DNA from: a virus
Lineage: Duplodnaviria > Caudoviricetes
Length of the DNA: 64,000 bases
Reading direction: 5' to 3' (one strand)
IMG/VR virus record: IMGVR_UViG_3300028591_000084
Shown in pieces: positions 37,701 through 53,583 of this stretch (within the stretch, counting starts at the first letter, position 1; each line of letters begins with the position of its first letter). The notes under the pieces are model-generated. The model was not told the DNA's origin. It made no database searches and saw nothing but the letters and a program-made list of their open reading frames with translations. Both the position numbers and the translations under genes were made by a program.

Positions 37701-38634
37701 GTCCCTTGACAGAGGCCTTATTTCTAAATTCAGTGCTGGCGAAGATATATACATATACAGTACAAAGCTTTATCTTGGTGAAGAAGGTTGGAATTCGCTA
37801 AGTAAAGAACAGCAGAAGGCTTGGCGTAAGAAATTCAAAACAGTCTTCCTAGGTGTCTTATACGGCTTAGGTAAAAACTCACTAGCAGAACGTTTGGAAT
37901 GTAGTTTAGAGGAAGCTGAAAGAATTATTCAATCACTCTACACATCATTCCCAGGCCTAAGAGAGTATGTGGATAAACAAGGTCAATATCCTCTTGATCA
38001 TGACGGTTACATCAACACATTTTTAGGTGATAAGCTAAGATTAAGAGAATTTTATGATTATCTCCCCAAGGCTACTAGTGATTACGAAAGGAAGAATATA
38101 ATTGCTAGAATTAAACGCCTAGGAGTTAATCTTCCAATTCAAGGTGGAACAAGTAGTATTATGGCTTGTGGATTCTTCAACAATATTAGGCAATCAATAA
38201 AAGAAGGCTGGGATCAACCTCTTCAACCTATTATTGTAGTGCATGATTCAAATACTAATTACATCCCAGTTGAAAAGATCTTTGACATCAGACATTTTTA
38301 CGATGTAAATTATACTGATTTCTGTGCTAGTTTTGGTCCTAGAATCAAGCTACTATTTGATTTATTGGCGGGCTATTCTTATGAGTCAGCTAAGGAGATG
38401 AAAACTAGAAACAATGAAATTGAATTTACTGGGGATGCCACGAGTTTAATGATGATTAGGAATAAAATAATGTCCTGTCCAAAATTAAACGTTGAATGTA
38501 GTATGTCTGTTGAAGAACTAATTGCATCTCGTCAAATAATCACGGATCCTATCGATAGATTTATTAAGGAAAATGGTTGTTGTATGGACAAAGATGTAAG
38601 TAAAGTAACTATCAAATTCAGAAAGCTTAACTAA
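34794..38634 (+). CDS. polA: family A DNA polymerase with 3'-5' exonuclease, spliced join(34794..37429,37683..38634), 1195 aa
   Basis: Exo FDYEG, YNMQYE, YCNLD; motif A DISSAEV|KAAG restored by splicing; motif B RKKFKTVFLGVLYG; NLPIQG; motif C VHDS. Confidence 0.93.
37430..37682 (+). mobile_element. group I self-splicing intron, 253 nt, no homing endonuclease
   Basis: P1 GGUU/AGCC with U37429.G wobble; P2 tcacctata/tgtaggtga; P3 acgggca/tgtccgt; P4 acggt/accgt; P6 ctcacct/aggtgag; P7 GCAUA/UAUGC; P8 catcc/ggatg; P9 ctgtaga/tctacag; terminal G37682; removal restores the frame. Confidence 0.92.
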
Positions 38635-38642
38635 AAAAAATT

Positions 38643-38727
38643 AGAACTTACCATTATCGTTTCGTGTAATGGCAGGTTCTTTTTTTTTTATTCGGAGTAA
38701 AAAAGAAAAAGAGGATCTTAGTCCTCT
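38643..38727. terminator. two convergent terminators
   Basis: agaacttaccatta/taatggcaggttct followed by T-tract; A-tract then agagga/tcctct. Confidence 0.75.
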
Positions 38728-38728
38728 C

Positions 38729-39322
38729 TTACCAAACAATACCTTCAGAAATCATTAAGAAATCTGAAAGTAGATCCAAACTTTTCTGTCCTACTCCTTT
38801 CTTTCTAGCAAAAAGGGCGCTAGAAGGATATTTAATTAGAAATTCTTGAATTGTAAAATTTTTACTTGCACTACCCCAATAAGACATTGCGGAAATCAAG
38901 CAGTTTCTTAACCTTCCTACTCCCCTTTGATCACCATAGAGTAGATTAATTTTATAGATCATTGAGTCGGGCCTTAGTTTTTCTACTACCTGTTGTTTAC
39001 CGACTCTTTCTCTAATATCCAGTCTCTTAAGTCCATCAGCCATTCTCAAAAGTCTGGCAATTCCGTAGGACAATCTAAAATTCTCTTTTTCTTCTAATAA
39101 TGGTGGTCTATGATTTATAAATCCCGGCACCTCGTCTGCCGCAAAATTAAGAGAAAGGACATAAGTATAAGTTCCTCCTCCATCTAAAGTAACATAAGTT
39201 CTGCCTTGATCCTTAAGTTCTACTATTCTCTTTTCCACATAATAGTAGGCCTCGTTAACTAATTCTTGAAGTTCGAGCGGTTTGAACCTTAATTTCTCAC
39301 CCTCCACTATAAACAGTTTCAT
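38729..39322 (-). CDS. protein with C-terminal RNA polymerase alpha-CTD-like domain
   Basis: RLRNCL...TIQEFL...GVGQKSLDLL parallels alpha-CTD RSANCL...IGDL...NLGKKSLTEI. Confidence 0.65.
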   Translation of the reverse strand: MKLFIVEGEKLRFKPLELQELVNEAYYYVEKRIVELKDQGRTYVTLDGGGTYTYVLSLNFAADEVPGFINHRPPLLEEKENFRLSYGIARLLRMADGLKRLDIRERVGKQQVVEKLRPDSMIYKINLLYGDQRGVGRLRNCLISAMSYWGSASKNFTIQEFLIKYPSSALFARKKGVGQKSLDLLSDFLMISEGIVW

Positions 39323-39800
39323 CTATTACTAAATTATCTAAATTAAATAAAAGTAGACATTCACAATCCCAAGTACAGAATAATTCATGTTCTTCTGATT
39401 CCCAGGGCCTTAATTCTTGCTGACTAAGAATATAGGCTTCTTCTGTCAACCAAATACCATCATAATCTTGAGCTAGTTTTTCAAAGTTTATTGTCTTATA
39501 CTTTCTATCAAGCCAAATTTGATCAGGCGTCGGAAGAAGTATCTCTGTATATTGTTCTACATCTTTTGCTGTTTTAATTTTTAGAAGATTTTTAGGTTTA
39601 CTAAAATGGAACTTAGTAAAAGTCCCTAAGCTCTCTCTTCTAAAATCCTCTAACTCACAGAAATATTTCCAATCAAACCTTACATTATCAACCGGACAAC
39701 ACCAAAGACCACCTCTGGGCTTATTACTAATAGCTAGTTCATTTTTTATTAATCTAAACTTATTCTTATCAATAATATGTCCGTAAGTTATTAAATTCAT
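39297..39800 (-). CDS. hypothetical phage protein
   Basis: 167 aa; KPRGGLW, NFEKLAQDYDGI, WDCE. Confidence 0.8.
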   Translation of the reverse strand: MNLITYGHIIDKNKFRLIKNELAISNKPRGGLWCCPVDNVRFDWKYFCELEDFRRESLGTFTKFHFSKPKNLLKIKTAKDVEQYTEILLPTPDQIWLDRKYKTINFEKLAQDYDGIWLTEEAYILSQQELRPWESEEHELFCTWDCECLLLFNLDNLVIDETVYSGG

Positions 39801-39802
39801 TT

Positions 39803-39844
39803 CATAATTTAGGCATTGGAGGGGGCACTAAATCCTTACTATTG
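39803..39844. promoter_or_regulatory. back-to-back divergent phage promoters
   Basis: Minus: CCC-tccaatg-CCTAAattaTG-aa-ATG. Plus: aaatCCTTActatTG-at-ATG. Confidence 0.7.
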
Positions 39845-39846
39845 AT

Positions 39847-40221
39847 ATGAATAGTATTTTTGAAAGTACAGCGACTATTTTTTCGCTTATTAAGAAACCT
39901 GGAGTAGATAGTTATGAATTCTATTTCTTAGGTATGACAGAAGACAATAATAATGTCTTTTGGACTAGTGATTTGAACTTAGGTAAGAGGTTTCCAATTG
40001 GTGATGCTGAAAGTAATGACTTCTTTGCCGAAACTTTTTTGAAGGTTACTGATCCTGAATCTCCTATATATCAGGACCTAATAAAAAGGATCGAACCCCC
40101 TTATCGAGAGGATGCTGAAATCTATGTCGGTAAATTTAGATTACACCTTGATGTTCTTCCCGGCACTGTAGTTAGGAAGATAAAGAAAGGAAAACCTATC
40201 GACGTTGATCTCAAGAATTGA
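39847..40221 (+). CDS. hypothetical protein
   Basis: 124 aa. Confidence 0.8.
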   Translation: MNSIFESTATIFSLIKKPGVDSYEFYFLGMTEDNNNVFWTSDLNLGKRFPIGDAESNDFFAETFLKVTDPESPIYQDLIKRIEPPYREDAEIYVGKFRLHLDVLPGTVVRKIKKGKPIDVDLKN

Positions 40222-40270
40222 GTGGTATTTGAGATCCCCCCCAATTCTTTAATAATGTAATAAGAAGATT

Positions 40271-40518
40271 ATGCAAAAAAGATTCCTGTTATTAAACTGG
40301 AATTTCGGTTAGATTGTTTCCTCAGGGATAACATTACTAACCGGCATAATACTCTTATTAACCTGGAATTTATATTAGAGACACAATACAAATATTTACA
40401 GATAGATCTTCCTTCCCAAGTAGAAATATTTGGGAGATACTTAAGCTTTACGCGCAATAAATACGAGGACGGCTTAAGTATGAAGAACTATCTTTTGCTT
40501 ATAAAACATAAAAAGTAG
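40271..40518 (+). pseudogene. frameshifted ~82 aa ORF (A6 run after ATG)
   Basis: Promoter at 40237..40257; ATG CAA AAA A is out of frame with an open frame KIPVIKLEF...KHKK*; A7 would restore it. Confidence 0.45.
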
Positions 40519-40747
40519 TTTGGTAGGTCAATTAGATCTATTTAAACGAAACCACAGGCTGGTTAGGACCGTTATAAGTTCTGTAAAATGTTAGGCCTGG
40601 CATAATATTACTATTCTTATTTATATTTATTCGACCTAACATAACCAGTATAAAATAAGTATTAATCTACTAACTATCGCTGCATAGTGGTAGTTTTTCT
40701 TTTTTTTTATTTTATACCAAACAAATCATCTCAATTCCTTAATAATA

Positions 40748-40823
40748 GATAGTGCTAGCTAGTTATTTTAGTTATTTGAATATTTGGGAGGGAAATTGCT
40801 TGTGATAAGTAGTTTCCCTTTTT
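40748..40823 (+). ncRNA. candidate sRNA 1 (promoter, U-rich segment, GUGAU-loop terminator)
   Basis: Promoter CCTTAataaTA 40737..40747; hairpin gggaaattgctt-GTGAT-aagtagtttccc + T5; no ORF. Confidence 0.55.
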
Positions 40824-40861
40824 ACTTTGAAAATGAAATCCCTATCAAATCCTTACTAGTG

Positions 40862-40929
40862 AAGTAAATTTTTCGGTTGCTATTTCAAAAGGTAGTGGTC
40901 TGTGAAGATCGCTACTTTTCATTTTTTTT
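40862..40929 (+). ncRNA. candidate sRNA 2
   Basis: Promoter CCTTActagTG 40851..40861; hairpin gtagtggtct-GTGA-agatcgctac + T-tract. Confidence 0.55.
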
Positions 40930-40953
40930 ATTCCCCTCGAATCTTTATTAATA

Positions 40954-41027
40954 TATATTAGTGGTTTTATTATTATAATTTCGTTAGAAGAGACCGTTCG
41001 TGATGAATAGTCTCTTTTTTCTTTTTT
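40954..41027 (+). ncRNA. candidate sRNA 3
   Basis: Promoter CCC-N7-CTTTAttaaTA 40933..40953; hairpin gagaccgttc-GTGAT-gaatagtctc + T-tract. Confidence 0.55.
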
Positions 41028-41053
41028 CAACCCGTTAAATCTTTAATATTGAT

Positions 41054-41131
41054 ATGAGTAATAAAACATATATTATAAGTAAGATTTGTATTGGTAATAT
41101 AATGCTCGGATTCAGGAGGTCCGGGCTATAA
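41054..41131 (+). CDS. possible 25-aa leader peptide
   Basis: ATG 2 nt after promoter CCC-gttaaat-CTTTAatatTG; MSNKTYIISKICIGNIMLGFRRSGL. Confidence 0.35.
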   Translation: MSNKTYIISKICIGNIMLGFRRSGL

Positions 41132-41141
41132 TAAAAATAGT

Positions 41142-41366
41142 ATGGAAGAGATCAAGAAAGGATTGATTGTTGAATTTAAAGATAAGAGTCCTAATCCAAA
41201 AACAGGATTAAGTCACGAAAATGCTTATCAAGTTATCGGTACTTGCTTCATGAAAGATCCTACTAGTAGAGAGTGGTTACCGGCCGTAATCTATAAAGGG
41301 GGTGATGAAGTTTATGTTAGAGAACTTAATGAATTCATTGAAAAATTTCAAATTAGAACATCATGA
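41142..41366 (+). CDS. DUF1653-like small protein
   Basis: YQVIG...VIYK....YVRELNEFIEKF pattern. Confidence 0.65.
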   Translation: MEEIKKGLIVEFKDKSPNPKTGLSHENAYQVIGTCFMKDPTSREWLPAVIYKGGDEVYVRELNEFIEKFQIRTS

Positions 41367-43057
41367 TTGGTCAATCTATTATTAACTTATTCGACGGTAT
41401 TATTAAAGGTAATGCACAATTAATTGTAGGCGATTATCAAAGAAGACCAGATTCGTGGCAGAGAATGCAACACAAGAGGCTCTTCGACGATATTATTCGA
41501 TCTTCTGAGAGAGCAGAACGAGGAGAACAGGCAGAGCATTATATCCAGACAGTAACCTTGTTTAGAGGTGAAGGTCGATTAGGGGATCCTTATCAATCAG
41601 CTTATATTGTTGATGGATTGCAGAGAACCACTAATATTTTTATTCTTTGCGCTGCTTTAAGAAATGCTATTCTTAATTCTCCAGAACTAATTAAAGAAGA
41701 CAAGTATAATGACTGTCAAAGAGATCTAAAGAGGCAATTTCTTATTAATTCTGAATCGGGAGAACGAAAATTAAAACTTTATCGTCAAAGTGATGATGAG
41801 ATATTAGATTTTATCGTTCAAAATGATAAGGAAAATCTTGAAAAACTTAAAGAGATTCCACTAATAAAGGTCTACCAATATTACTATAATAGAGCTAAAT
41901 TGGTTAAAAGATCAATCCCTAAGTATTATGAGAAGGGATTGAGAAACTTTACGTGGATTCTTGAAGAGTGTCAATCAGAAAGACAAGCAATAGAACTTTT
42001 CATTGATAAAAACGCTCTACAAAAAGGTACTACAAGCGGCGAAGTGATTCAAGCTAAATTTAGAAATGCTATTATGGATCACTTAACACCTGAAGAGTCT
42101 AAAGAAATAACAAAGCTAATAGATGAAGTAATTGAGTATGAGGAGCTTACGCTTAGTTCCTTTTTTACTGATTTTCTCTACTACAGCTATAATGAAAAGT
42201 ATTCAGATCAAACAACAAAAGAGGTTTATATGAACCTTCTTGACGATCCTGGCGTTGATTTAGTAAGAACTATAAAGAAATTATATTCCTATTATCTATT
42301 TGATAAAGCTTGGAAAGAGAAATCATTTAATCTCGAACCAGCTAAACATCTTCTGGAATCTACCTATACTAAACAATCCTTAAAGGATCTCTTTGTAGAT
42401 CTTTTCAGTGATAAATTTGATGGTAAGTTTGAACTAGGAATGCAGGACAAAGTTCTTATATATAAACTGTGTGAAGCCTATATTATAAGACGAGATGCTG
42501 TAGGTAGAACACAGCACGATAATAAAGTCCTGGCGAAAGTTCTTAGCACTGCGCTAACAGAAGATACTGATTCATATAAAAACCCAGTCGATAAGGTTAG
42601 AAATTTTCTATATAAAAGACCAGGAAAAGAACTGTCCGTCGTCTCTGATGAAGAACTAAGAAAAGAAGGATTAAAGAGTGATGTCTATAAGAATAATGCC
42701 ATGAGAAGACTGACCCTGTGCATACTTCAAAGAATCAATGATAGATTCAGAGTCATCGGGGAACCAAGAATCTATGGGGCTGATAGCATCTCCCTTGATC
42801 ATATTATGTGTCAAAAAAATAATGACAAGAATCCACTCCTGAATATGATCGGAAATCTAACAATTCTTACATCATCCGCCAACTCCCAAATTAGAAATGC
42901 TAAGTTTGAGGAGAAAAGACATCAACTTTATGACCAATCTATATTTAAAATTAATTGGTATTTTAAAGAAAATGAAATTGAACACTGGACTGATGATGAA
43001 ATTCTGAGGAGAAATGATTATATTATTGACCAAGTTATTGATCTCTGGCCAATCTAA
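41363..43057 (+). CDS. GmrSD/SspE-like protein (DUF262 + DUF1524 HNH)
   Basis: YQRRPDSW, IVDGLQRTT, LFxxxN; C-terminal SLDHIMCQ...IGNLTILTSSANS. Confidence 0.85.
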   Translation: MIGQSIINLFDGIIKGNAQLIVGDYQRRPDSWQRMQHKRLFDDIIRSSERAERGEQAEHYIQTVTLFRGEGRLGDPYQSAYIVDGLQRTTNIFILCAALRNAILNSPELIKEDKYNDCQRDLKRQFLINSESGERKLKLYRQSDDEILDFIVQNDKENLEKLKEIPLIKVYQYYYNRAKLVKRSIPKYYEKGLRNFTWILEECQSERQAIELFIDKNALQKGTTSGEVIQAKFRNAIMDHLTPEESKEITKLIDEVIEYEELTLSSFFTDFLYYSYNEKYSDQTTKEVYMNLLDDPGVDLVRTIKKLYSYYLFDKAWKEKSFNLEPAKHLLESTYTKQSLKDLFVDLFSDKFDGKFELGMQDKVLIYKLCEAYIIRRDAVGRTQHDNKVLAKVLSTALTEDTDSYKNPVDKVRNFLYKRPGKELSVVSDEELRKEGLKSDVYKNNAMRRLTLCILQRINDRFRVIGEPRIYGADSISLDHIMCQKNNDKNPLLNMIGNLTILTSSANSQIRNAKFEEKRHQLYDQSIFKINWYFKENEIEHWTDDEILRRNDYIIDQVIDLWPI

Positions 43058-43058
43058 A

Positions 43059-43103
43059 TAAAAAAAAGAGAGTAGTTTAAACGCTACCCTCTTTAATTTT
43101 TTT
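43059..43103. terminator. bidirectional terminator
   Basis: A-tract, agagagtag/ctaccctct, T-tract. Confidence 0.7.
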
Positions 43104-43427
43104 TTACTTTACCTCAATTAGTTTAGCCTCAGTTCCCTGCTTTTTGGGAACTAGTACTGTCAAAATTCCATTCTCAAGACTGGCTGTAATACCTTCTTGA
43201 TCAACATCAACCGGCAAAGTATACCTGAGATTGAACCTATCTTTGAAGGGGCCAAACTTATCAGAAGACTTAATTAGCAAACAATCACGTTCAGTTTTAA
43301 TCTCTAGCTCATCTTTAGTTACTCCTACAGCTCTAACCTCAATAATAAAATTCTCCTCACACTCTCTTACATCTGTTACCGCACTCTCCTTGAAAGTCGG
43401 AAACATAAAATCATTAAATGCTATCAT
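43104..43427 (-). CDS. small heat shock protein (Hsp20/alpha-crystallin)
   Basis: GVTKDEL, FxxxYTLP.DVD..I.ASLENGILTVLVPK, C-terminal IEV; AGGAG upstream. Confidence 0.93.
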   Translation of the reverse strand: MIAFNDFMFPTFKESAVTDVRECEENFIIEVRAVGVTKDELEIKTERDCLLIKSSDKFGPFKDRFNLRYTLPVDVDQEGITASLENGILTVLVPKKQGTEAKLIEVK

Positions 43428-43458
43428 AATATTTTATCTCCTTTCTATTAACCTCTAA

Positions 43459-43520
43459 TGCAAAAACTATACCAAAGAAAAAAGAATGACAAAATGACAT
43501 AAAGATGTGTCATACTGTCA
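43459..43520 (-). promoter_or_regulatory. sigma54-type promoter with upstream TGACA-N3-TGACA inverted operator
   Basis: Minus TTGGTATAGTTTTTGCA (GG-N10-GC) at 43459..43475; TGACAaaaTGACA-N8-TGTCAtacTGTCA at 43487..43520. Confidence 0.65.
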
Positions 43521-43521
43521 G

Positions 43522-43712
43522 AAAAAAAATTTTAAAGCGCACCAACTCCCATTGCTACACTCTTGCTATCACCTAAGAGCTCCACAATTCCATTAATGCG
43601 CTTTTAGACCAACAACTTACTTCTCTTAGCCTACCGATTCTTGCTATTACCTAAGAACCTAATATGCTTAAAAGATCTTTATTATTGATCTCTCTTACTA
43701 TTCTTATTTATT
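43522..43712 (-). ncRNA. candidate structured ncRNA with two copies of a TCTTAGGTRATAGCAAGA stem-loop
   Basis: Promoter CCTTAtataTG at 43713..43723; 18-nt repeats at 43561..43578 and 43639..43656; aaagcgca/tgcgcttt stem before a T-tract; no ORF. Confidence 0.5.
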
Positions 43713-43792
43713 CATATATAAGGCTTTAAGACGATTTTAAAGGTAGTTTTTGGCCTATTTTTAACCAAAATTTAAAGAAAAATAAAGAAAAA

Positions 43793-44185
43793 TCAAGGTA
43801 AATCCTTGATTTTCCCCAAAAACTCCTTATCAAAGGCGGACGTTTCGGAAATCGCCCAGATCTTACTTGGAGTTTTTATGTATACTTCTGTGAAATGCTC
43901 GATTTCTCGAGCTGCATCACATACTTTACTTATCTCAACATTTCCGTAAATGAAATGCTTAGATAATGTATCGTGTGCGCTACAAACGCCCTCCAACCAC
44001 TCCTTCTCCCGAAAGAATGGTATTTTTTGGTCCTTACCTGCTTTCTCACAAGCGGCCCTTAGTTTCTCTACTCGGGGCAATCCCTGTTTTATTATCAGGA
44101 TGATTTTTATTACCCCAAGGGACTCGGCCCTCTCCCAAATGGAGATAACCGACTCTCTAAATCTTAATTCTTTTGTTTTTTCCAT
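43793..44185 (-). CDS. hypothetical protein
   Basis: 130 aa; promoter at 44273..44293; structured leader. Confidence 0.75.
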   Translation of the reverse strand: MEKTKELRFRESVISIWERAESLGVIKIILIIKQGLPRVEKLRAACEKAGKDQKIPFFREKEWLEGVCSAHDTLSKHFIYGNVEISKVCDAAREIEHFTEVYIKTPSKIWAISETSAFDKEFLGKIKDLP

Positions 44186-44293
44186 AACTTGTTGTTGTTA
44201 GGCTCCTTTTTCTCATTCCTCAGGATCGGAACCTACTAATCCCTTGGAAGATAACTTACTACGTTTCAGTTACATATATAAGGCTTTGAGGAG

Positions 44294-44364
44294 AAAGAAG
44301 AAAGAGAGCTATTCATCACGAACGGCTCCCTCTAAAGTAATAAATAAAAACAAATAGGTATTTA
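44294..44364 (-). ncRNA. candidate sRNA 4 (paralog of sRNA 3)
   Basis: Promoter CCTTAcataTA 44365..44375; hairpin ggagccgttc-GTGAT-gaatagctct with compensatory changes versus sRNA 3. Confidence 0.55.
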
Positions 44365-44386
44365 TATATGTAAGGTTTTAATGGTT

Positions 44387-44445
44387 TAATACAGAGTCCG
44401 GTTAAAAATGAAAAGTAGCGATCTTCACAGACCACTACCTTTTGA
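44387..44445 (-). repeat. repeat/terminator element after clpC
   Basis: 44387..44438 is the exact reverse complement of 52939..52990; 44404..44445 is the exact reverse complement of 40885..40926. Confidence 0.9.
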
Positions 44446-44482
44446 GAAGGTCCAGGATTTTACTCCCAGACCCAACCAAGTA

Positions 44483-47257
44483 TTAATTAACAACTACTTT
44501 AACTTTTTTCTCTTCCTCATCCCAGTCCGTATTAAACTTATTAACAGTAGTATCTTCTACCATTTTAAGACTAATAGGACCTACAATATACTCAATAATC
44601 TTTCTCTGAAGATCTCTAGCTCCAAAGGTCTTATCACAAGCCTCAATAATTACATCTCTAAGCTTTGGTGAGATCTTGATTGATATATTAGACTTGTTTA
44701 ACTGCTTCTTAATTTTATCGAGCTCCAGAACAAATATCTTCTCCAGCTCTTTCTTTCCGAGCGGATTAAAAACAATAACCTTATTTAGTCGGTTCAGAAA
44801 TTCCGGCCTGAAATAGCTCTTGACGCTCTTCATAACAATATCTTGCGTTCTTTGAGCCTCATCATTTTCTTCGCCTTCCTTACCAAACCCGATCTTAATA
44901 GTATTCTTTAGTTCTTTAGTTCCAATATTGCCGGTAAAGATTATAATGGTATTTGTGAAATCTACTTCTTCACCATTAGCCATTTTTATTTTACCTTCAT
45001 CTAGCATATTAAGAAACAGGTCGAGTATAGACTCATGCATCTTCTCCACTTCATCGATTAGGACAAGTGAATTTTTGTGGCGCCTTACTTGCTCAAGTAA
45101 TGTTCCACCAGCATTATCATAACCAACATATCCCGGAGGAGCACCTATTAGTTTAGAGATTGAGTGGGATTCTTTAAGTTCACCACAATCAATCTTTACT
45201 AAATTCTTCTCTGATCCAAAAAAGTTTTTAGCTAGTTGTTTAGCTATCAGAGTTTTACCAACACCAGAGGGACCAACTTCCAAAATGCTACAAATTGGTT
45301 TTCTTTGATTTCTAAGTCCAAGCGCATTAAGCTGAATCGCCTGAATAAATGTATCAATAGCTCCTTGTTGTCCTATTACCTGTTTTTCAAGCTCTTTCTT
45401 GATTTTAGCTACTTTCTCAGTATCAGTCTGAATAATCTTTTCTACTGGTATTCTTGAAAGTTTTGAAACAGCCAGGGCAACATCACTCTTTGTCACTTCA
45501 AGCCAGTTCTTTCTATTATTAGTCTCCTTGGCTTGAGCTTTTTCTCGTTTATCTAATTCTTCTTTAAGAGCTCGTTCCTCTTTTTGCAATCGATCACCCT
45601 CCTCAAAATCCATCTTTACTGTAACAGCATCGATCTTGTCTTGAATAACCTTCTCTAACTTCTCCTCAAGATCAGCATTAGGATTATCCTTCGAACAAAG
45701 ACTTAAAGATCTCAAAGATACTATAGATCCCGCCAAATCCAGAACATCTATTGATTTGTCTGGTTGATGTCTATCTGAAATATACCTCTCGCTCCAATCA
45801 ACACAAAGTTCAATTACTTCTTTGGTGAATTTTACTTTATGGTATTTCTCATAGGAACTATTAACACCCTTTAGAATCTTTATACACTCTGCTCTGGAGG
45901 GTTCAATAATATCGATCTGTGAAAACCTTCTCTTCAAGGCTGCATCTTTCTCGATATATTTATGATATTCGTCACTCGTAGTTGCTCCTATACACTGAAA
46001 TTCTCCACGCGCAAGATATGGTTTTAAAATATTAGCCATATCACCAGAGCCACTAGAACCGGCATTAACGATATTATGAATCTCGTCAATAAAGATCATG
46101 ACCTTACCTTTATTTTCGATAAGCTCTTTAATGATTTTCTGGATTCTTTCCTCAAATTGGCCGCGATATTGTGTTCCTGCTATAAGATCATTTACGTTGA
46201 GAGCACAGAGACGTATTCCCCTTAAGTTCTTAGGTACCTCATCTCTACTAATTCTTTGTGCTAGTCTCTCAATAATAGCGGATTTTCCACAACCTGCCTC
46301 GCCCGTTAGGATGACATTATTTTTCTTCCTCTTAGTTAGAACCTCTATCATTTGATCTACAATGTCATCTCTTCCGATAACAGGATCAAACTTATTCTTC
46401 TCAGCTAGTTTTGTATAATCAACTGCAAAAGAGTCAAGGATAGGGGTATTACTACTAGGATCGATAGCAGTCCCTGAAAAAGCATTGGATTCTCCAAACT
46501 TCTCAAAAGCTTTATCATCCTCATTTTTTTCATCAATTCCACTGAAGGGAGAACTAATAATTTTCTCTTTCAATTCACCCTCCTCATCACTTTTTTTCTC
46601 AGCTCTCTTTTTCATGAACTCCTCGAAATCAGTGATAGTTGATATAATTTTATCAGCAAAGTGGGGATCATCAGGGCTTGGTATAGAGTCCAGCCAATTG
46701 CTCATTTTATCAAGAGTACCTCCTAAAGTCTTGACTAGTTCTTCATACTCCTCGTCGATAAATTTCTTAACAACTTCAGCAAAATCTTCACCCGTTACGT
46801 CTAAGATCCCGGGAATAACATCAAGTTCCTTATGAAGTAAACAGGAGTAAAGTAAAACCTCGGGAAATAATAAACCATTAAATTTTGGGTAATGTTTCGA
46901 AACTAAATCCGTAGCCTCTTCATAGATGACATCAAGAACTGGACTAAAAGGTATAGGATCATTGGGACCCATAAGACCCTCTTGAATATTTTTATCCAGT
47001 CTAAGCTCAGTCATTTCCTTCTCCTTAACAAGCTCAACATCAATAGCCTGTAAGATCTCAATTCTCTGTTTTGGCGTTAAATACTCAAAATAGATCTTAG
47101 ATAACAAACCCCCACTCTTAAGTAATCCTTCTTTTGTCATAACGAAGGAAGAAGCAATAAAGTTTGCTACAGTAATGACTTTAACATTACTTCGTCTCGC
47201 ATATTCTGATCCAAATTTCAGAATATTTGATAGTTCTTTGCTTTGTGATCTTTCCAT
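44483..47257 (-). CDS. clpC: ClpC-type Hsp100 AAA+ unfoldase
   Basis: GEAGCGKS, FIDEIH, GATT, PDKSIDVLD, UVR-like M-domain, GPSGVGKT, GAPPGYVGY, IGF loop, FRPEFLNR, FGAR. Confidence 0.92.
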   Translation of the reverse strand: MERSQSKELSNILKFGSEYARRSNVKVITVANFIASSFVMTKEGLLKSGGLLSKIYFEYLTPKQRIEILQAIDVELVKEKEMTELRLDKNIQEGLMGPNDPIPFSPVLDVIYEEATDLVSKHYPKFNGLLFPEVLLYSCLLHKELDVIPGILDVTGEDFAEVVKKFIDEEYEELVKTLGGTLDKMSNWLDSIPSPDDPHFADKIISTITDFEEFMKKRAEKKSDEEGELKEKIISSPFSGIDEKNEDDKAFEKFGESNAFSGTAIDPSSNTPILDSFAVDYTKLAEKNKFDPVIGRDDIVDQMIEVLTKRKKNNVILTGEAGCGKSAIIERLAQRISRDEVPKNLRGIRLCALNVNDLIAGTQYRGQFEERIQKIIKELIENKGKVMIFIDEIHNIVNAGSSGSGDMANILKPYLARGEFQCIGATTSDEYHKYIEKDAALKRRFSQIDIIEPSRAECIKILKGVNSSYEKYHKVKFTKEVIELCVDWSERYISDRHQPDKSIDVLDLAGSIVSLRSLSLCSKDNPNADLEEKLEKVIQDKIDAVTVKMDFEEGDRLQKEERALKEELDKREKAQAKETNNRKNWLEVTKSDVALAVSKLSRIPVEKIIQTDTEKVAKIKKELEKQVIGQQGAIDTFIQAIQLNALGLRNQRKPICSILEVGPSGVGKTLIAKQLAKNFFGSEKNLVKIDCGELKESHSISKLIGAPPGYVGYDNAGGTLLEQVRRHKNSLVLIDEVEKMHESILDLFLNMLDEGKIKMANGEEVDFTNTIIIFTGNIGTKELKNTIKIGFGKEGEENDEAQRTQDIVMKSVKSYFRPEFLNRLNKVIVFNPLGKKELEKIFVLELDKIKKQLNKSNISIKISPKLRDVIIEACDKTFGARDLQRKIIEYIVGPISLKMVEDTTVNKFNTDWDEEEKKVKVVVN

Positions 47258-47301
47258 ATATCTTTAAAACTTTTACCACTTTTAAGGGTCTGGCTACTTT
47301 T

Positions 47302-48138
47302 TTAGTGGATTTTTATAAGTTTTACTTTAGCTGCATTATCACCACAATCATTAGTAGCTATAATTTGAGATTTATAGTCATAACCACATCCTTTGATGGC
47401 CTTCCAGACAAGACGCATAACATCTCTCCTCTCCTCTTTAACGGGACAGATCAAAGAAGCAATTCCTCTTCTCGCCAATAAGAAAAAGTTAGCGTAAGCA
47501 ATGAAGATCGGTGAGTTATATTGATCTGGCCCTAACTCTTTTTTCAGAAATTCTTTAGCCTCCTCTCTGGAACTTTCACTAATACCAGTTTCGAGGGAGG
47601 TATCTAGATTTATTTCTTCCGGAACAAGAAGCTTATTCTCTCCTATCTCTTGCATTATTGATCTAAATTCTTCGATTTCTTTTATAATACAAGTCTGATA
47701 AGGAGTCTTTGGAATCATATTTTCCAACTCCCTAAATCTCTTTTCTGTAATTATATGTTGGGATATAGACTCTTTGGCCTGTATCTCCCCTAATCTTACC
47801 GCTATAAGAGATTCAAATTTGGTTGAGGGATAGAATGATATTTTATATAGATTCTCAGAAATAATCTTACCCACCAAATTAAAAGTAACTTTATAGGCAT
47901 AAGATGTGTAATTAGAAGAGAATATAATAAGAAACTCAGGCTCCTTATCCATCTTATCAGGCCAATCAATAGGCGTGTCTGACTGAATAAATCTGATATA
48001 CTGAGAAATTCTCTCAATAAACTCTTTAGAGAATAGATCATACTCACTGGATACTTTAATCAATCCACATCCATCTAGATCTTCTAATTCTCTAGTACCA
48101 ATAAACGGATCATTAACGATATTAAATTTCTTAATCAT
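47302..48138 (-). CDS. hypothetical protein
   Basis: 278 aa; promoter CCTTActatTG-ac-ATG. Confidence 0.8.
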   Translation of the reverse strand: MIKKFNIVNDPFIGTRELEDLDGCGLIKVSSEYDLFSKEFIERISQYIRFIQSDTPIDWPDKMDKEPEFLIIFSSNYTSYAYKVTFNLVGKIISENLYKISFYPSTKFESLIAVRLGEIQAKESISQHIITEKRFRELENMIPKTPYQTCIIKEIEEFRSIMQEIGENKLLVPEEINLDTSLETGISESSREEAKEFLKKELGPDQYNSPIFIAYANFFLLARRGIASLICPVKEERRDVMRLVWKAIKGCGYDYKSQIIATNDCGDNAAKVKLIKIH

Positions 48139-52220: not shown

Positions 52221-52901
52221 ATGGGATTTAGAGATTTTTATAAAGCAGAACATCCTTATGGTATGTCTGCTCTTGATGATTATGCGAAGAAGAGTGTGAT
52301 TACTCCTTATATCACAAGAGAGAGTAAAGATCGCATGGTTCAAGTTGATGTATTTTCTGAGCTGATGGATAATAGAATTATGTTTCTCGGAGATGAGATT
52401 AATTCAGATGTTTGTTGTATTGCCCTCAGTCAGCTTGTATATCTTCACGCAGTAAATCCAACCGCCCCAATAACAGTTTATATCATGAGCCCTGGGGGTG
52501 AAGTATACTCAGGGATGGCACTTTATGATACTATGGAGCTTATTAAAAAAGATTGTGTAATTAATACAACTTGCCTTGGGCTGGCCGCTAGTATGGGCAG
52601 TATATTAATGCAAGGAGGTACACGAGGATATAGAAGCGCATTACCACATAGCAGAATTATGGTTCACTCTGCTAGTACCGGGGCAGAACGCATAACTTAT
52701 CCTGACCTTAGAATTATGGCAGATGAAACAGAACAGCTGAATAACGAATTGCTTAGAATTCTTAGTGAATCTAGTGGTAAACCTTTTGAGGAAGTAGAGA
52801 AAGATTGTCAAAGGGATTGCTGGGTTAGGGCAGATGATGCGCTACCTGGAAAATATGGAGAATTTGGATTGATAGATAAAATTATAGATAAATTAAATTG
52901 A
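52221..52901 (+). CDS. clpP: ATP-dependent Clp protease proteolytic subunit (start revised to MGFRDFY)
   Basis: DVFSELMDNRIMFL, YIMSPGG, AASMGS (Ser), IMVH (His), RD (Asp), FGLID. Confidence 0.96.
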   Translation: MGFRDFYKAEHPYGMSALDDYAKKSVITPYITRESKDRMVQVDVFSELMDNRIMFLGDEINSDVCCIALSQLVYLHAVNPTAPITVYIMSPGGEVYSGMALYDTMELIKKDCVINTTCLGLAASMGSILMQGGTRGYRSALPHSRIMVHSASTGAERITYPDLRIMADETEQLNNELLRILSESSGKPFEEVEKDCQRDCWVRADDALPGKYGEFGLIDKIIDKLN

Positions 52902-52938
52902 TTTTACATTTGTTTTAGCTTTACTTATTGTGAGGAAA

Positions 52939-52990
52939 GTAGTGGTCTGTGAAGATCGCTACTTTTCATTTTTAACCGGACTCTGTATTA
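52939..52990 (+). repeat. repeat/terminator element after clpP
   Basis: 52-bp perfect inverted repeat of 44387..44438. Confidence 0.9.
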
Positions 52991-53583
52991 GGGTCTTTGA
53001 GTTTCTAGTGGGACGAAAGTTCGGCGCGGAATCTTTGGTTTTGTAATCTCGGGAAAAATAAACAAACCTGACTTGCTTAAAGGCAGGAGTTAGGAGCGTT
53101 TCCCCGAAGACATAACTCTGGAATGAAACGACTGATTAAAGGAGTGAAATGAAGGATTAAATTAAAAGTTGAGACGGGAGCCCTAATTCTAAAAGAATTA
53201 GCCCTCCACACCACCCGTCTCACTCAATTGGCGCTATCGCTCCAACTGAGGTAAATTATATCAATAAAATCTCTATATTTCCAAAGGAAATTTGGTGTGG
53301 TGGGCTATTCTATACTTGGCGAATCTTATGATGACATGGCGCACTTTAGGGCGACAGGGCAGAATAAGACAATGAGATAGTATAGAATAGGGCTTGTTTT
53401 TAAAGATTTTATATTAAAATTAGTAAAATTAAAATTTGTCATTTTTTTAAAATTTATGTAGTATATAAGGGATAACGGAAAAATTATCTCAAAAATGACA
53501 AAAAATACTGATAAATTCAACCTAAATCCTGACATGTGGGAAATACTCCCAACTGCAGAAATTTTAAGCTAAATTTATATAGT
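52991..53583. other. structured non-coding region (candidate origin or regulatory RNA)
   Basis: Multiple hairpins (tgagacggg/cccgtctca; 53199..53213 complementary to 53293..53307) followed by an AT-rich tract. Confidence 0.4.

Follow-up and report, generated by a model that had tools for sequence, protein, structure and literature searches.

Three short transcription units that encode no protein stand in a row at 40727-41051 (+) of a 64,000-nt stretch of Caudoviricetes DNA (IMG/VR record IMGVR_UViG_3300028591_000084; this whole stretch is called the window). Each consists of a promoter, a U-rich segment of 24-36 nt and a terminator hairpin, and an inverted, diverged copy of the third, unit 4, occupies 44296-44362 (-). 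We consider it somewhat better than an even bet (roughly 0.55) that the array is a battery of independent small RNA (sRNA) genes of a giant Bacteroidales phage, built like the FopS RNAs of the host. This reading is favored because the promoters and terminators are intact, the U-rich spacers are similar in length, the paralogous units 3 and 4 have kept their structure, and both the layout and the hairpin tips (here termed handles) recur in many giant phages. We infer discrete transcription of the units, action in trans and targets.

Regulatory sRNAs of Bacteroidota are a recent subject, with GibS described in 2020 (PMC7366714) and FopS in 2025 (PMC11697453). One FopS copy in a Bacteroides phage (PMC11697453) is the only phage copy of such RNAs that we found mentioned in the literature. 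If the units described here are expressed, giant gut and rumen phages carry sRNA batteries with host-style 3' ends and private 5' ends, a route for reprogramming host gene expression that is invisible to protein-centered annotation.

A row of promoters and terminators without reading frames

A preliminary description of the window had reported three units of promoter, U-rich segment and GUGA-loop hairpin that encode no protein, and a promoter weight matrix, RNA folds and a check of open reading frames (ORFs) confirm them. The features, in window coordinates, are:

40229..40264 (+): promoter heading an ORF-less stretch of ~440 nt; anchor TTA at 40249, weight-matrix score 19.6 bits
40672..40695 (+): terminator hairpin T0, closing the stretch 5' of the array; GCAU loop and T-run, -10.1 kcal/mol, z -4.6
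40719..40754 (+): unit 1 promoter; anchor 40739, 15.1 bits, a site outside the training set
40750..40826 (+): unit 1 predicted RNA, ~77 nt; 36-nt 5' part (53% U), type-1 hairpin at 40786-40822 (tip UGCUUGUGAUAAGUA), U-run
40833..40868 (+): unit 2 promoter; anchor 40853, 18.0 bits
40864..40927 (+): unit 2 predicted RNA, ~64 nt; 24-nt 5' part, type-2 hairpin at 40888-40919 (tip UGGUCUGUGAAGAUCG, GUGA loop), U-run
40925..40960 (+): unit 3 promoter; anchor 40945, 18.0 bits
40956..41026 (+): unit 3 predicted RNA, ~71 nt; 30-nt 5' part (60% U), type-3 hairpin at 40986-41018 (tip CGUUCGUGAUGAAUA), U-run
41023..41058 (+): promoter of the operon of a 25-aa ORF, a 74-aa gene and GmrSD; anchor 41043, 24.2 bits; outside the ORF-less units
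44296..44393 (-): unit 4, diverged inverted paralogue of unit 3; promoter anchor 44373 (10.3 bits), 29-nt 5' part (62% U), type-3 hairpin at 44333-44301, U-run; predicted RNA 44362-44296
44411..44442 (-): type-2 hairpin that terminates clpC; shares 42 identical nt with unit 2 and 52 with the clpP copy
52934..52967 (+): third type-2 hairpin, terminating clpP

The earlier estimate of ~70 nt per unit holds for the predicted RNAs alone (~64-77 nt), the promoters being spaced 92-114 nt apart. Units 1 to 4 fold with energies of -22.8 (z -3.7), -18.4 (z -4.6), -15.0 (z -2.9) and -14.8 kcal/mol (z -2.5), and their loops read GUGAU, GUGA, GUGAU and GUGAU, each hairpin being followed by a T-run. Because the stems contain G-U pairs, the hairpins are strand-specific and therefore act at the RNA level. 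The 5' segments contain 50-62% U, compared with 34% T in intergenic DNA.

The plus strand of the array has no ORF that starts with ATG; its sole ORFs are TTG or GTG frames of at most 27 aa that cross the hairpins and the next promoter. Could the units nevertheless be micro-peptide genes, or the region a replication origin with primer transcripts? Unit 1 has a 17-codon GTG frame beginning ~2 nt past the predicted start site, and the region is ORF-poor, AT-rich and near replication genes. However, no frame is common to the units and the frames enter the hairpin loops, so that with ATG starts also lacking we rejected peptide genes. GC skew tracks the coding strand, with no turning point specific to 40-41 kb, and an origin at the array was set aside for want of a skew signal. 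We regard both ideas as very improbable.

To train the promoter weight matrix we used 20 sites that lie upstream of genes and outside the array (consensus c.c.t.aaatccTTAnnnnTGA). In the window the matrix finds 28 sites of at least 14 bits, all of them intergenic, against 0.75 in shuffled sequence. The preliminary description had recognized this motif at the array, and the untrained plus-strand sites there bear it out with scores of 15.1-24.2 bits (40249, 19.6; 40739, 15.1; 40853, 18.0; 40945, 18.0; 41043, 24.2); on the minus strand, 43721 scores 21.6 bits and 44373 scores 10.3 bits. Five motif sites thus fall inside 800 nt of ORF-less DNA, where fewer than one per 128 kb is expected by chance. 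Elsewhere in the window the ATG of a gene often lies 3 nt past the TGAT of the motif, and a terminator followed by a promoter is the usual gene junction in this phage. With a start ~11 nt past the TTA, most protein genes should be leaderless.

Short contigs from four samples (L237, L239, L242-L244) coincide with single transcription units, their 5' ends lying 7-31 nt past predicted start sites and their 3' ends at or near terminators. Those of 1047-1070 nt correspond exactly to the operon of a 167-aa and a 197-aa gene (38723-39792 (-)); they start 8-31 nt inside the first codons and all end at 38723, inside the operon terminator. Two contigs of ~2 kb (L237 and L239) start at 41061 and 41063, right behind the 41043 promoter, and the GmrSD terminator is where one of the two ends (43070). 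If these contigs are derived from RNA, as we infer because their ends follow transcription units, they fit the start-site model.

Part of the array is duplicated. The segment 40880-41060 and the reverse complement of 44262-44450 are 81% identical, and both run in the order hairpin 2, promoter, spacer, hairpin 3 and next promoter, with compensatory changes in the stems. This substantiates the fourth, minus-strand unit with the same hairpin order that was reported earlier. Units 3 and 4 have kept spacer length, U-richness and the 17-nt tip despite several compensatory changes in the stem of hairpin 3; the 17-nt core CCGTTCGTGATGAATAG, noticed in the preliminary description together with those changes, is found exactly at 40994 (+) and 44325 (-) and nowhere else in the window. 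As also reported earlier, hairpin 2 ends clpC and clpP, occurring in the window at 40891, 44439 (-) and 52938, and the 52 nt at 44387-44438, behind clpC, are an exact inverted copy of 52939-52990. Long hairpins with GUGA(U) loops number only six in the window (units 1-4, clpC and clpP), and therefore they are not the general terminator style of this phage, contrary to the earlier suggestion.

The two module copies face inward around a block of genes for GmrSD, Hsp20 and a 130-aa protein. Units 3 and 4 could accordingly be pictured as leader modules of the two operons of this block, in which a factor bound to the 17-nt tip decides between a stop at hairpin 3 and read-through. The module lies directly upstream of both inward-facing operons, and its tip is invariant where the stem has changed. 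The boxB element of phage lambda has a comparable form, its short stem being capped by a GNRA-like pentaloop. However, right behind hairpin 3 each operon is served by a strong promoter of its own (24.2 bits at 41043), and the two ~2-kb contigs start behind that promoter and not upstream of it. Moreover, there is no gene for units 1 and 2 to control, and elsewhere the handles end stand-alone units and ordinary genes. Attenuation in cis is thus distinctly unlikely as an account of the array.

Hairpin tips recurring in other phages and in bacteria

The hairpin tips of the array form three classes, each with a conserved tip and a variable stem, and none is private to this phage. All three recur in other giant gut/rumen phages, type 1 also in Bacteroidaceae genomes and type 3 also in metagenome contigs of unknown origin. 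The type-1 tip UGCUUGUGAUAAGUA at 40797-40811 equals the hairpin-1 consensus of GibS, as a focused Rfam scan revealed, and with a T-run it occurs on 20 viral contigs, many of them 200-670 kb long. A pattern of the FopS R1 seed, 15-45 nt and GCTTGNGANAAGT matched 98 stretches of a collection of species genomes, nearly all from Bacteroides, Phocaeicola, other Bacteroidaceae or Prevotellaceae, and in some Rfam-confirmed FopS copies among them the type-1 hairpin is the terminator. The type-3 tip CGUUCGUGAUGAAUA is present on one viral and eight metagenome contigs. For type 2, an exact 24-nt hairpin pattern had no match in IMG/VR, and the 16-nt tip UGGUCUGUGAAGAUCG with a T-run matched 101 viral stretches, most of which lie on 200-400 kb contigs and among which 21 hairpins are distinct.

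The search patterns fixed the tip and the T-run but not the stems, so stem pairing is an independent result. When 26 hairpins of types 1 and 3 are aligned, 97.1% of pairs are formed, 9 of 12 pairs have changed on both sides and a G-U pair is the same throughout; covariation scores 0.938, compared with 0.238 for shuffles and at most 0.28 for slid partners. Between type 1 and type 3 there is a compensated swap from CUU/AAG to UUC/GAA, the latter variant being carried by units 3 and 4 with the G-U pair kept. The type-2 alignment of 19 distinct hairpins (17 from the 101 stretches and 2 from the window) is 96.9% paired, with a covariation score of 0.571 against 0.133 for shuffles and changes on both sides in all six variable pairs. 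The preliminary description had proposed looking for hairpin covariation in other phages and Bacteroidota, and the stems do covary. The hairpins have an invariant tip of 15-16 nt, a paired but variable lower stem and a U-run, as expected of terminator handles with a conserved tip; these classes are groups defined by the present models and alignments, distinct from a curated family.

A model built from type-1 and type-3 hairpins matches the window solely at unit 3 (53.0 bits), unit 1 (48.4 bits) and unit 4 (47.3 bits). Hairpin 2 was tried as a member and scored 18-20 bits, equal to generic terminators, and is accordingly placed in a class of its own. The same model finds 27 copies, 8 of them outside the training set, in 265 kb of phage loci that had been chosen for having at least one handle copy, and two matches in 465 kb of Bacteroidaceae DNA, both in sRNA genes. 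The layout also recurs: in many other phages, a terminator is followed by a CCTTAT(A/T)ATGA-type promoter (CCTTATATATGA-type), 25-60 nt without an ORF, a handle, the next promoter and a gene.

A separate observation concerns two metagenome stretches (L128:1600-1745 and L133:850-985), which each carry an apparent sRNA gene in the style of the host, a Bacteroides-type -33/-7 promoter followed by ~45 nt and a type-3 handle as terminator. The type-3 tip may also serve bacterial sRNAs outside Rfam.

So, are the units known sRNAs? No unit is a member of FopS or GibS. At Rfam gathering scores no family is found in the window, and the remaining matches are at chance level except for a partial likeness to GibS; the window has no tRNAs. 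FopS is a paralogous sRNA family of Bacteroides (Rfam RF04319) whose members are bound by the RRM protein RbpB and repress SusC-type mRNAs (PMC11697453). In focused scans of 40700-41060 and 44270-44480, the FopS model (cut-off 56 bits) gave no match at E<=10, and the same Rfam library gives FopS 59-78 bits in Bacteroidaceae loci. The R1/R1' seed (GUGUUUUUCAUgGUAUUAGAU, the first 21 nt of the RNA) is missing from the 5' parts of units 1-4, as is UUUUUCAU, with a loose likeness to the R1 seed only in unit 3 (GUGGUUUUAUUA) and unit 4 (UGUUUUUAU). The proteins encoded by the window contain no RRM RNP1 motif.

The resemblance to FopS is one of plan. The folds of the units follow it, a Rho-independent terminator of GUGA(N) loop standing directly behind a single-stranded 5' stretch, in an RNA of 64-77 nt compared with 65-71 nt for FopS; both are multicopy, and some FopS copies use the unit 1 tip, GCUUGNGAYAAGU, as terminator. 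Unlike FopS, in which the 5' part is conserved, the units lack the R1/R1' seed GUGUUUUUCAU and have 5' parts that vary from unit to unit. They also differ in having phage motif promoters instead of the host sigma-ABfr type and in standing head to tail in a row.

GibS is an sRNA of Bacteroides thetaiotaomicron (Rfam RF04182; PMC7366714). Its model (cut-off 115 bits) reaches 20.6 bits (E 1.1) in the window, with a match that spans two units. Unit 1 carries the tip of GibS hairpin 1 (uGCUUGuGAuAAGUa), its 15-nt tip being identical to the consensus. In contrast, GibS measures 142 nt and has, besides two seeds and two middle hairpins, a terminator separate from these, a role that the hairpin itself takes on in the phage.

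A further observation concerns hairpin 2, the 3' arm and tail of which read CUACUUUUCAUUUUU in all three copies (40910-40926, 44420-44404 (-) and 52957-52973). It complements a typical AAAAAUGAAAAG start region and bears a likeness to the FopS R1 core UUUUUCAU, which may be coincidence.

Candidate sRNA genes, linkers or scars

As an sRNA gene, each unit would use its own phage-type promoter, with a start ~11 nt past the TTA, and would produce an RNA of ~64-77 nt with an unstructured 5' part of 24-36 nt that differs between units. The 3' end would be an intrinsic terminator, the apical 15-16 nt of which come from one of the three conserved handle classes. By analogy with FopS and GibS, the 5' part may block initiation by pairing with A-rich translation start regions in mRNAs of the host or the phage; the handle would terminate and stabilize the RNA and might also be where a protein docks.

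Several findings weigh against this interpretation. The promoters of units 1-3 rank in the lower half of window sites, and that of unit 4 reaches 10.3 bits. About half of the phage type-1/3 copies lie within 80 nt behind a same-strand ORF and are therefore gene terminators, and the type-2 handle also ends clpC and clpP. Given that handles end protein genes too, the handle is a special class of terminator and alone no mark of sRNA genes. Furthermore, the 5' segments are not conserved within any handle class, so conserved seeds, which would be the strongest sign of a trans-acting family like FopS, are missing. The window contains no convincing target: with its 84 start regions, shuffled seeds form RNAduplex duplexes as good as the best ones of the units, and perfect complementarity to the 5' parts extends to 12 nt at most, which is chance-level. 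Lastly, a co-occurring variant of the phage lacks 40380-56526 (16.15 kb), and the array is therefore dispensable.

The earlier interpretation is thus partly supported. The architecture of a modular sRNA family stands, as do recurring handles with covarying stems, so that the handle is better supported than the window sequence alone could tell. The handle is not sRNA-specific, and the proposed pairing of U-rich seeds with start regions is no better than shuffled seeds among those of the window.

The variant is seen in a 24.8-kb contig (L240, JGI 3300024345; L240:1600-1800) that joins window position 40379 directly to 56527. The sample from which it comes also has the GmrSD unit, and this natural variant without the 16-kb block offers a ready comparison. 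Within the block lie the array, GmrSD, hsp20, the genes from clpC to clpP and two large unknown ones; its Pfam matches are confined to Clp, Hsp20, GmrSD and a phosphoesterase, with none to mobility genes. Only ACACA-like microhomology, and no cassette, is present at the junction. In the variant contig the 40249 promoter and the first ~130 nt behind it run straight into a 205-aa gene as its 5' leader. In the window, 40264-40671 (+) is ORF-less, lies between the 40249 promoter and T0, and contains a 28-nt direct repeat (40286-40313 and 40352-40379). Based on the joint in the variant contig, this stretch is probably a stranded leader plus block DNA.

The presence of the array in a strain-variable block invites comparison with the promoter-early stem-loop (PeSL) cassettes of T4-type phages (PMC2839356, PMC4122927). 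These, too, are composites of a promoter and a terminator, repeated in the intergenic DNA of variable regions, where they insulate small accessory genes. Read this way, the repeated unit would be a terminator plus promoter cassette that insulates genes and serves as a homology patch for modular shuffling, with the U-rich stretches as empty slots and any short RNA as a by-product. Terminator-then-promoter is indeed the normal gene junction of this phage, hairpin 2 is identical over 42-52 nt at three places, the inverted 170-nt module surrounds accessory genes (GmrSD, Hsp20 and the 130-aa gene), and the gene content at the junction downstream of clpC varies among relatives.

However, PeSLs flank ORFs and are alike in DNA, whereas the slots of the array have no ORF and only hairpin 2 is near-identical; promoter/stem-loop junctions are usual in the window and the module flanks the GmrSD/Hsp20 block, but the interior of the array has no ORFs to flank. 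Hairpins 1 and 3 are too dissimilar in DNA for homologous exchange (74% in the spacer). The indel junctions (~40380 and 56527) lie outside the cassettes, at the short microhomology, and recombinable DNA-alike copies with indels breaking at cassettes were not found, one indel having been examined. Recombination between linkers would leave a single linker, not a row with unique U-rich spacers of similar length (24-36 nt). Finally, the tips are conserved across unrelated phages and bacteria, including bacterial sRNAs, and the stems covary, which indicates selection on RNA and not on DNA homology. We therefore regard PeSL-like linkers as an unlikely explanation for the whole array, but the strongest of the competing ones; linkers and cis attenuation are both possible in part or in combination.

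Alternatively, the units could be decayed gene cassettes, functionless scars of deleted small genes whose promoters and terminators have not yet eroded. Neither a target nor a transcript is known, the phage can do without the block, and 40264-40671 resembles a stranded piece of the 205-aa gene's 5' leader together with block DNA. Yet the phage is ~89% coding, and in such a genome four scars side by side, all with promoter and terminator intact, would be odd. Units 3 and 4 have diverged and nevertheless kept structure and length, and the ORF-less layout with the same handles recurs in many phages. We consider decay improbable.

To return to the sRNA-gene reading, conserved tips with an invariant G-U pair point to a factor that reads them in host and phage RNAs. 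A more speculative extension, which we hold with considerable doubt, is that a single dedicated RNA-binding protein, from host or phage, docks at the three tips, and that giant Bacteroidales phages encode arrays of guide-like RNAs with a fast-evolving 5' guide and a constant handle. If so, the phage could retarget host translation or RNA decay, guides could be swapped between strains by cassette exchange, and the handles on the clpC and clpP mRNAs would recruit the same protein to selected phage messages.

Genome setting and neighboring stretches

One contig on which the proteins of the window are encoded measures 311,995 bp. The window, a part of a large uncultured phage, encodes GroEL/GroES, a ClpC-like ATPase (44483-47257 (-)), ClpP (52221-52901), Hsp20 (43104-43427 (-)), the GmrSD nuclease (41363-43057) and a split family A polymerase. 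GenBank phages have no match to 38000-47500 by megablast or to the 885-aa polymerase by tblastn, and a ClpC search of IMG/VR gave no relative. ClpC homologues with 44-55% identity are encoded on contigs of 300-430 kb; those at 53-55% identity differ in gene order and lack GUGA-loop terminators in the vicinity of clpC.

In the nearest ClpC relatives, the junction behind clpC extends for 94 nt up to an extra 437- or 611-aa gene (L002:12715-12942, L003:12721-12958, L005:12718-13059 and L008:12730-12824). In two of them (L003 and L005) a conserved unit of ~130 nt, ORF-less and closed by a long hairpin, lies in this junction. Right behind the clpP terminator of the window, 52990-53330 (+) appears GC-richer and structured by eye, with no ORF and no Rfam match.

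Two further stretches adjoin the GmrSD/Hsp20 block. A 25-codon ATG ORF at 41054-41131 (+) occupies the leaderless position of the 41043 promoter and ends 10 nt before the GmrSD-coupled 74-aa gene; it may encode a leader peptide. On the other side, at 43428-43735 (-), ~290 nt devoid of ORFs separate the strong promoter with anchor 43721 (21.6 bits) from the hsp20 ATG. This ORF-less stretch, which may be a long leader or a separate RNA, contains two 18-nt direct repeats (43561-43578 and 43639-43656).

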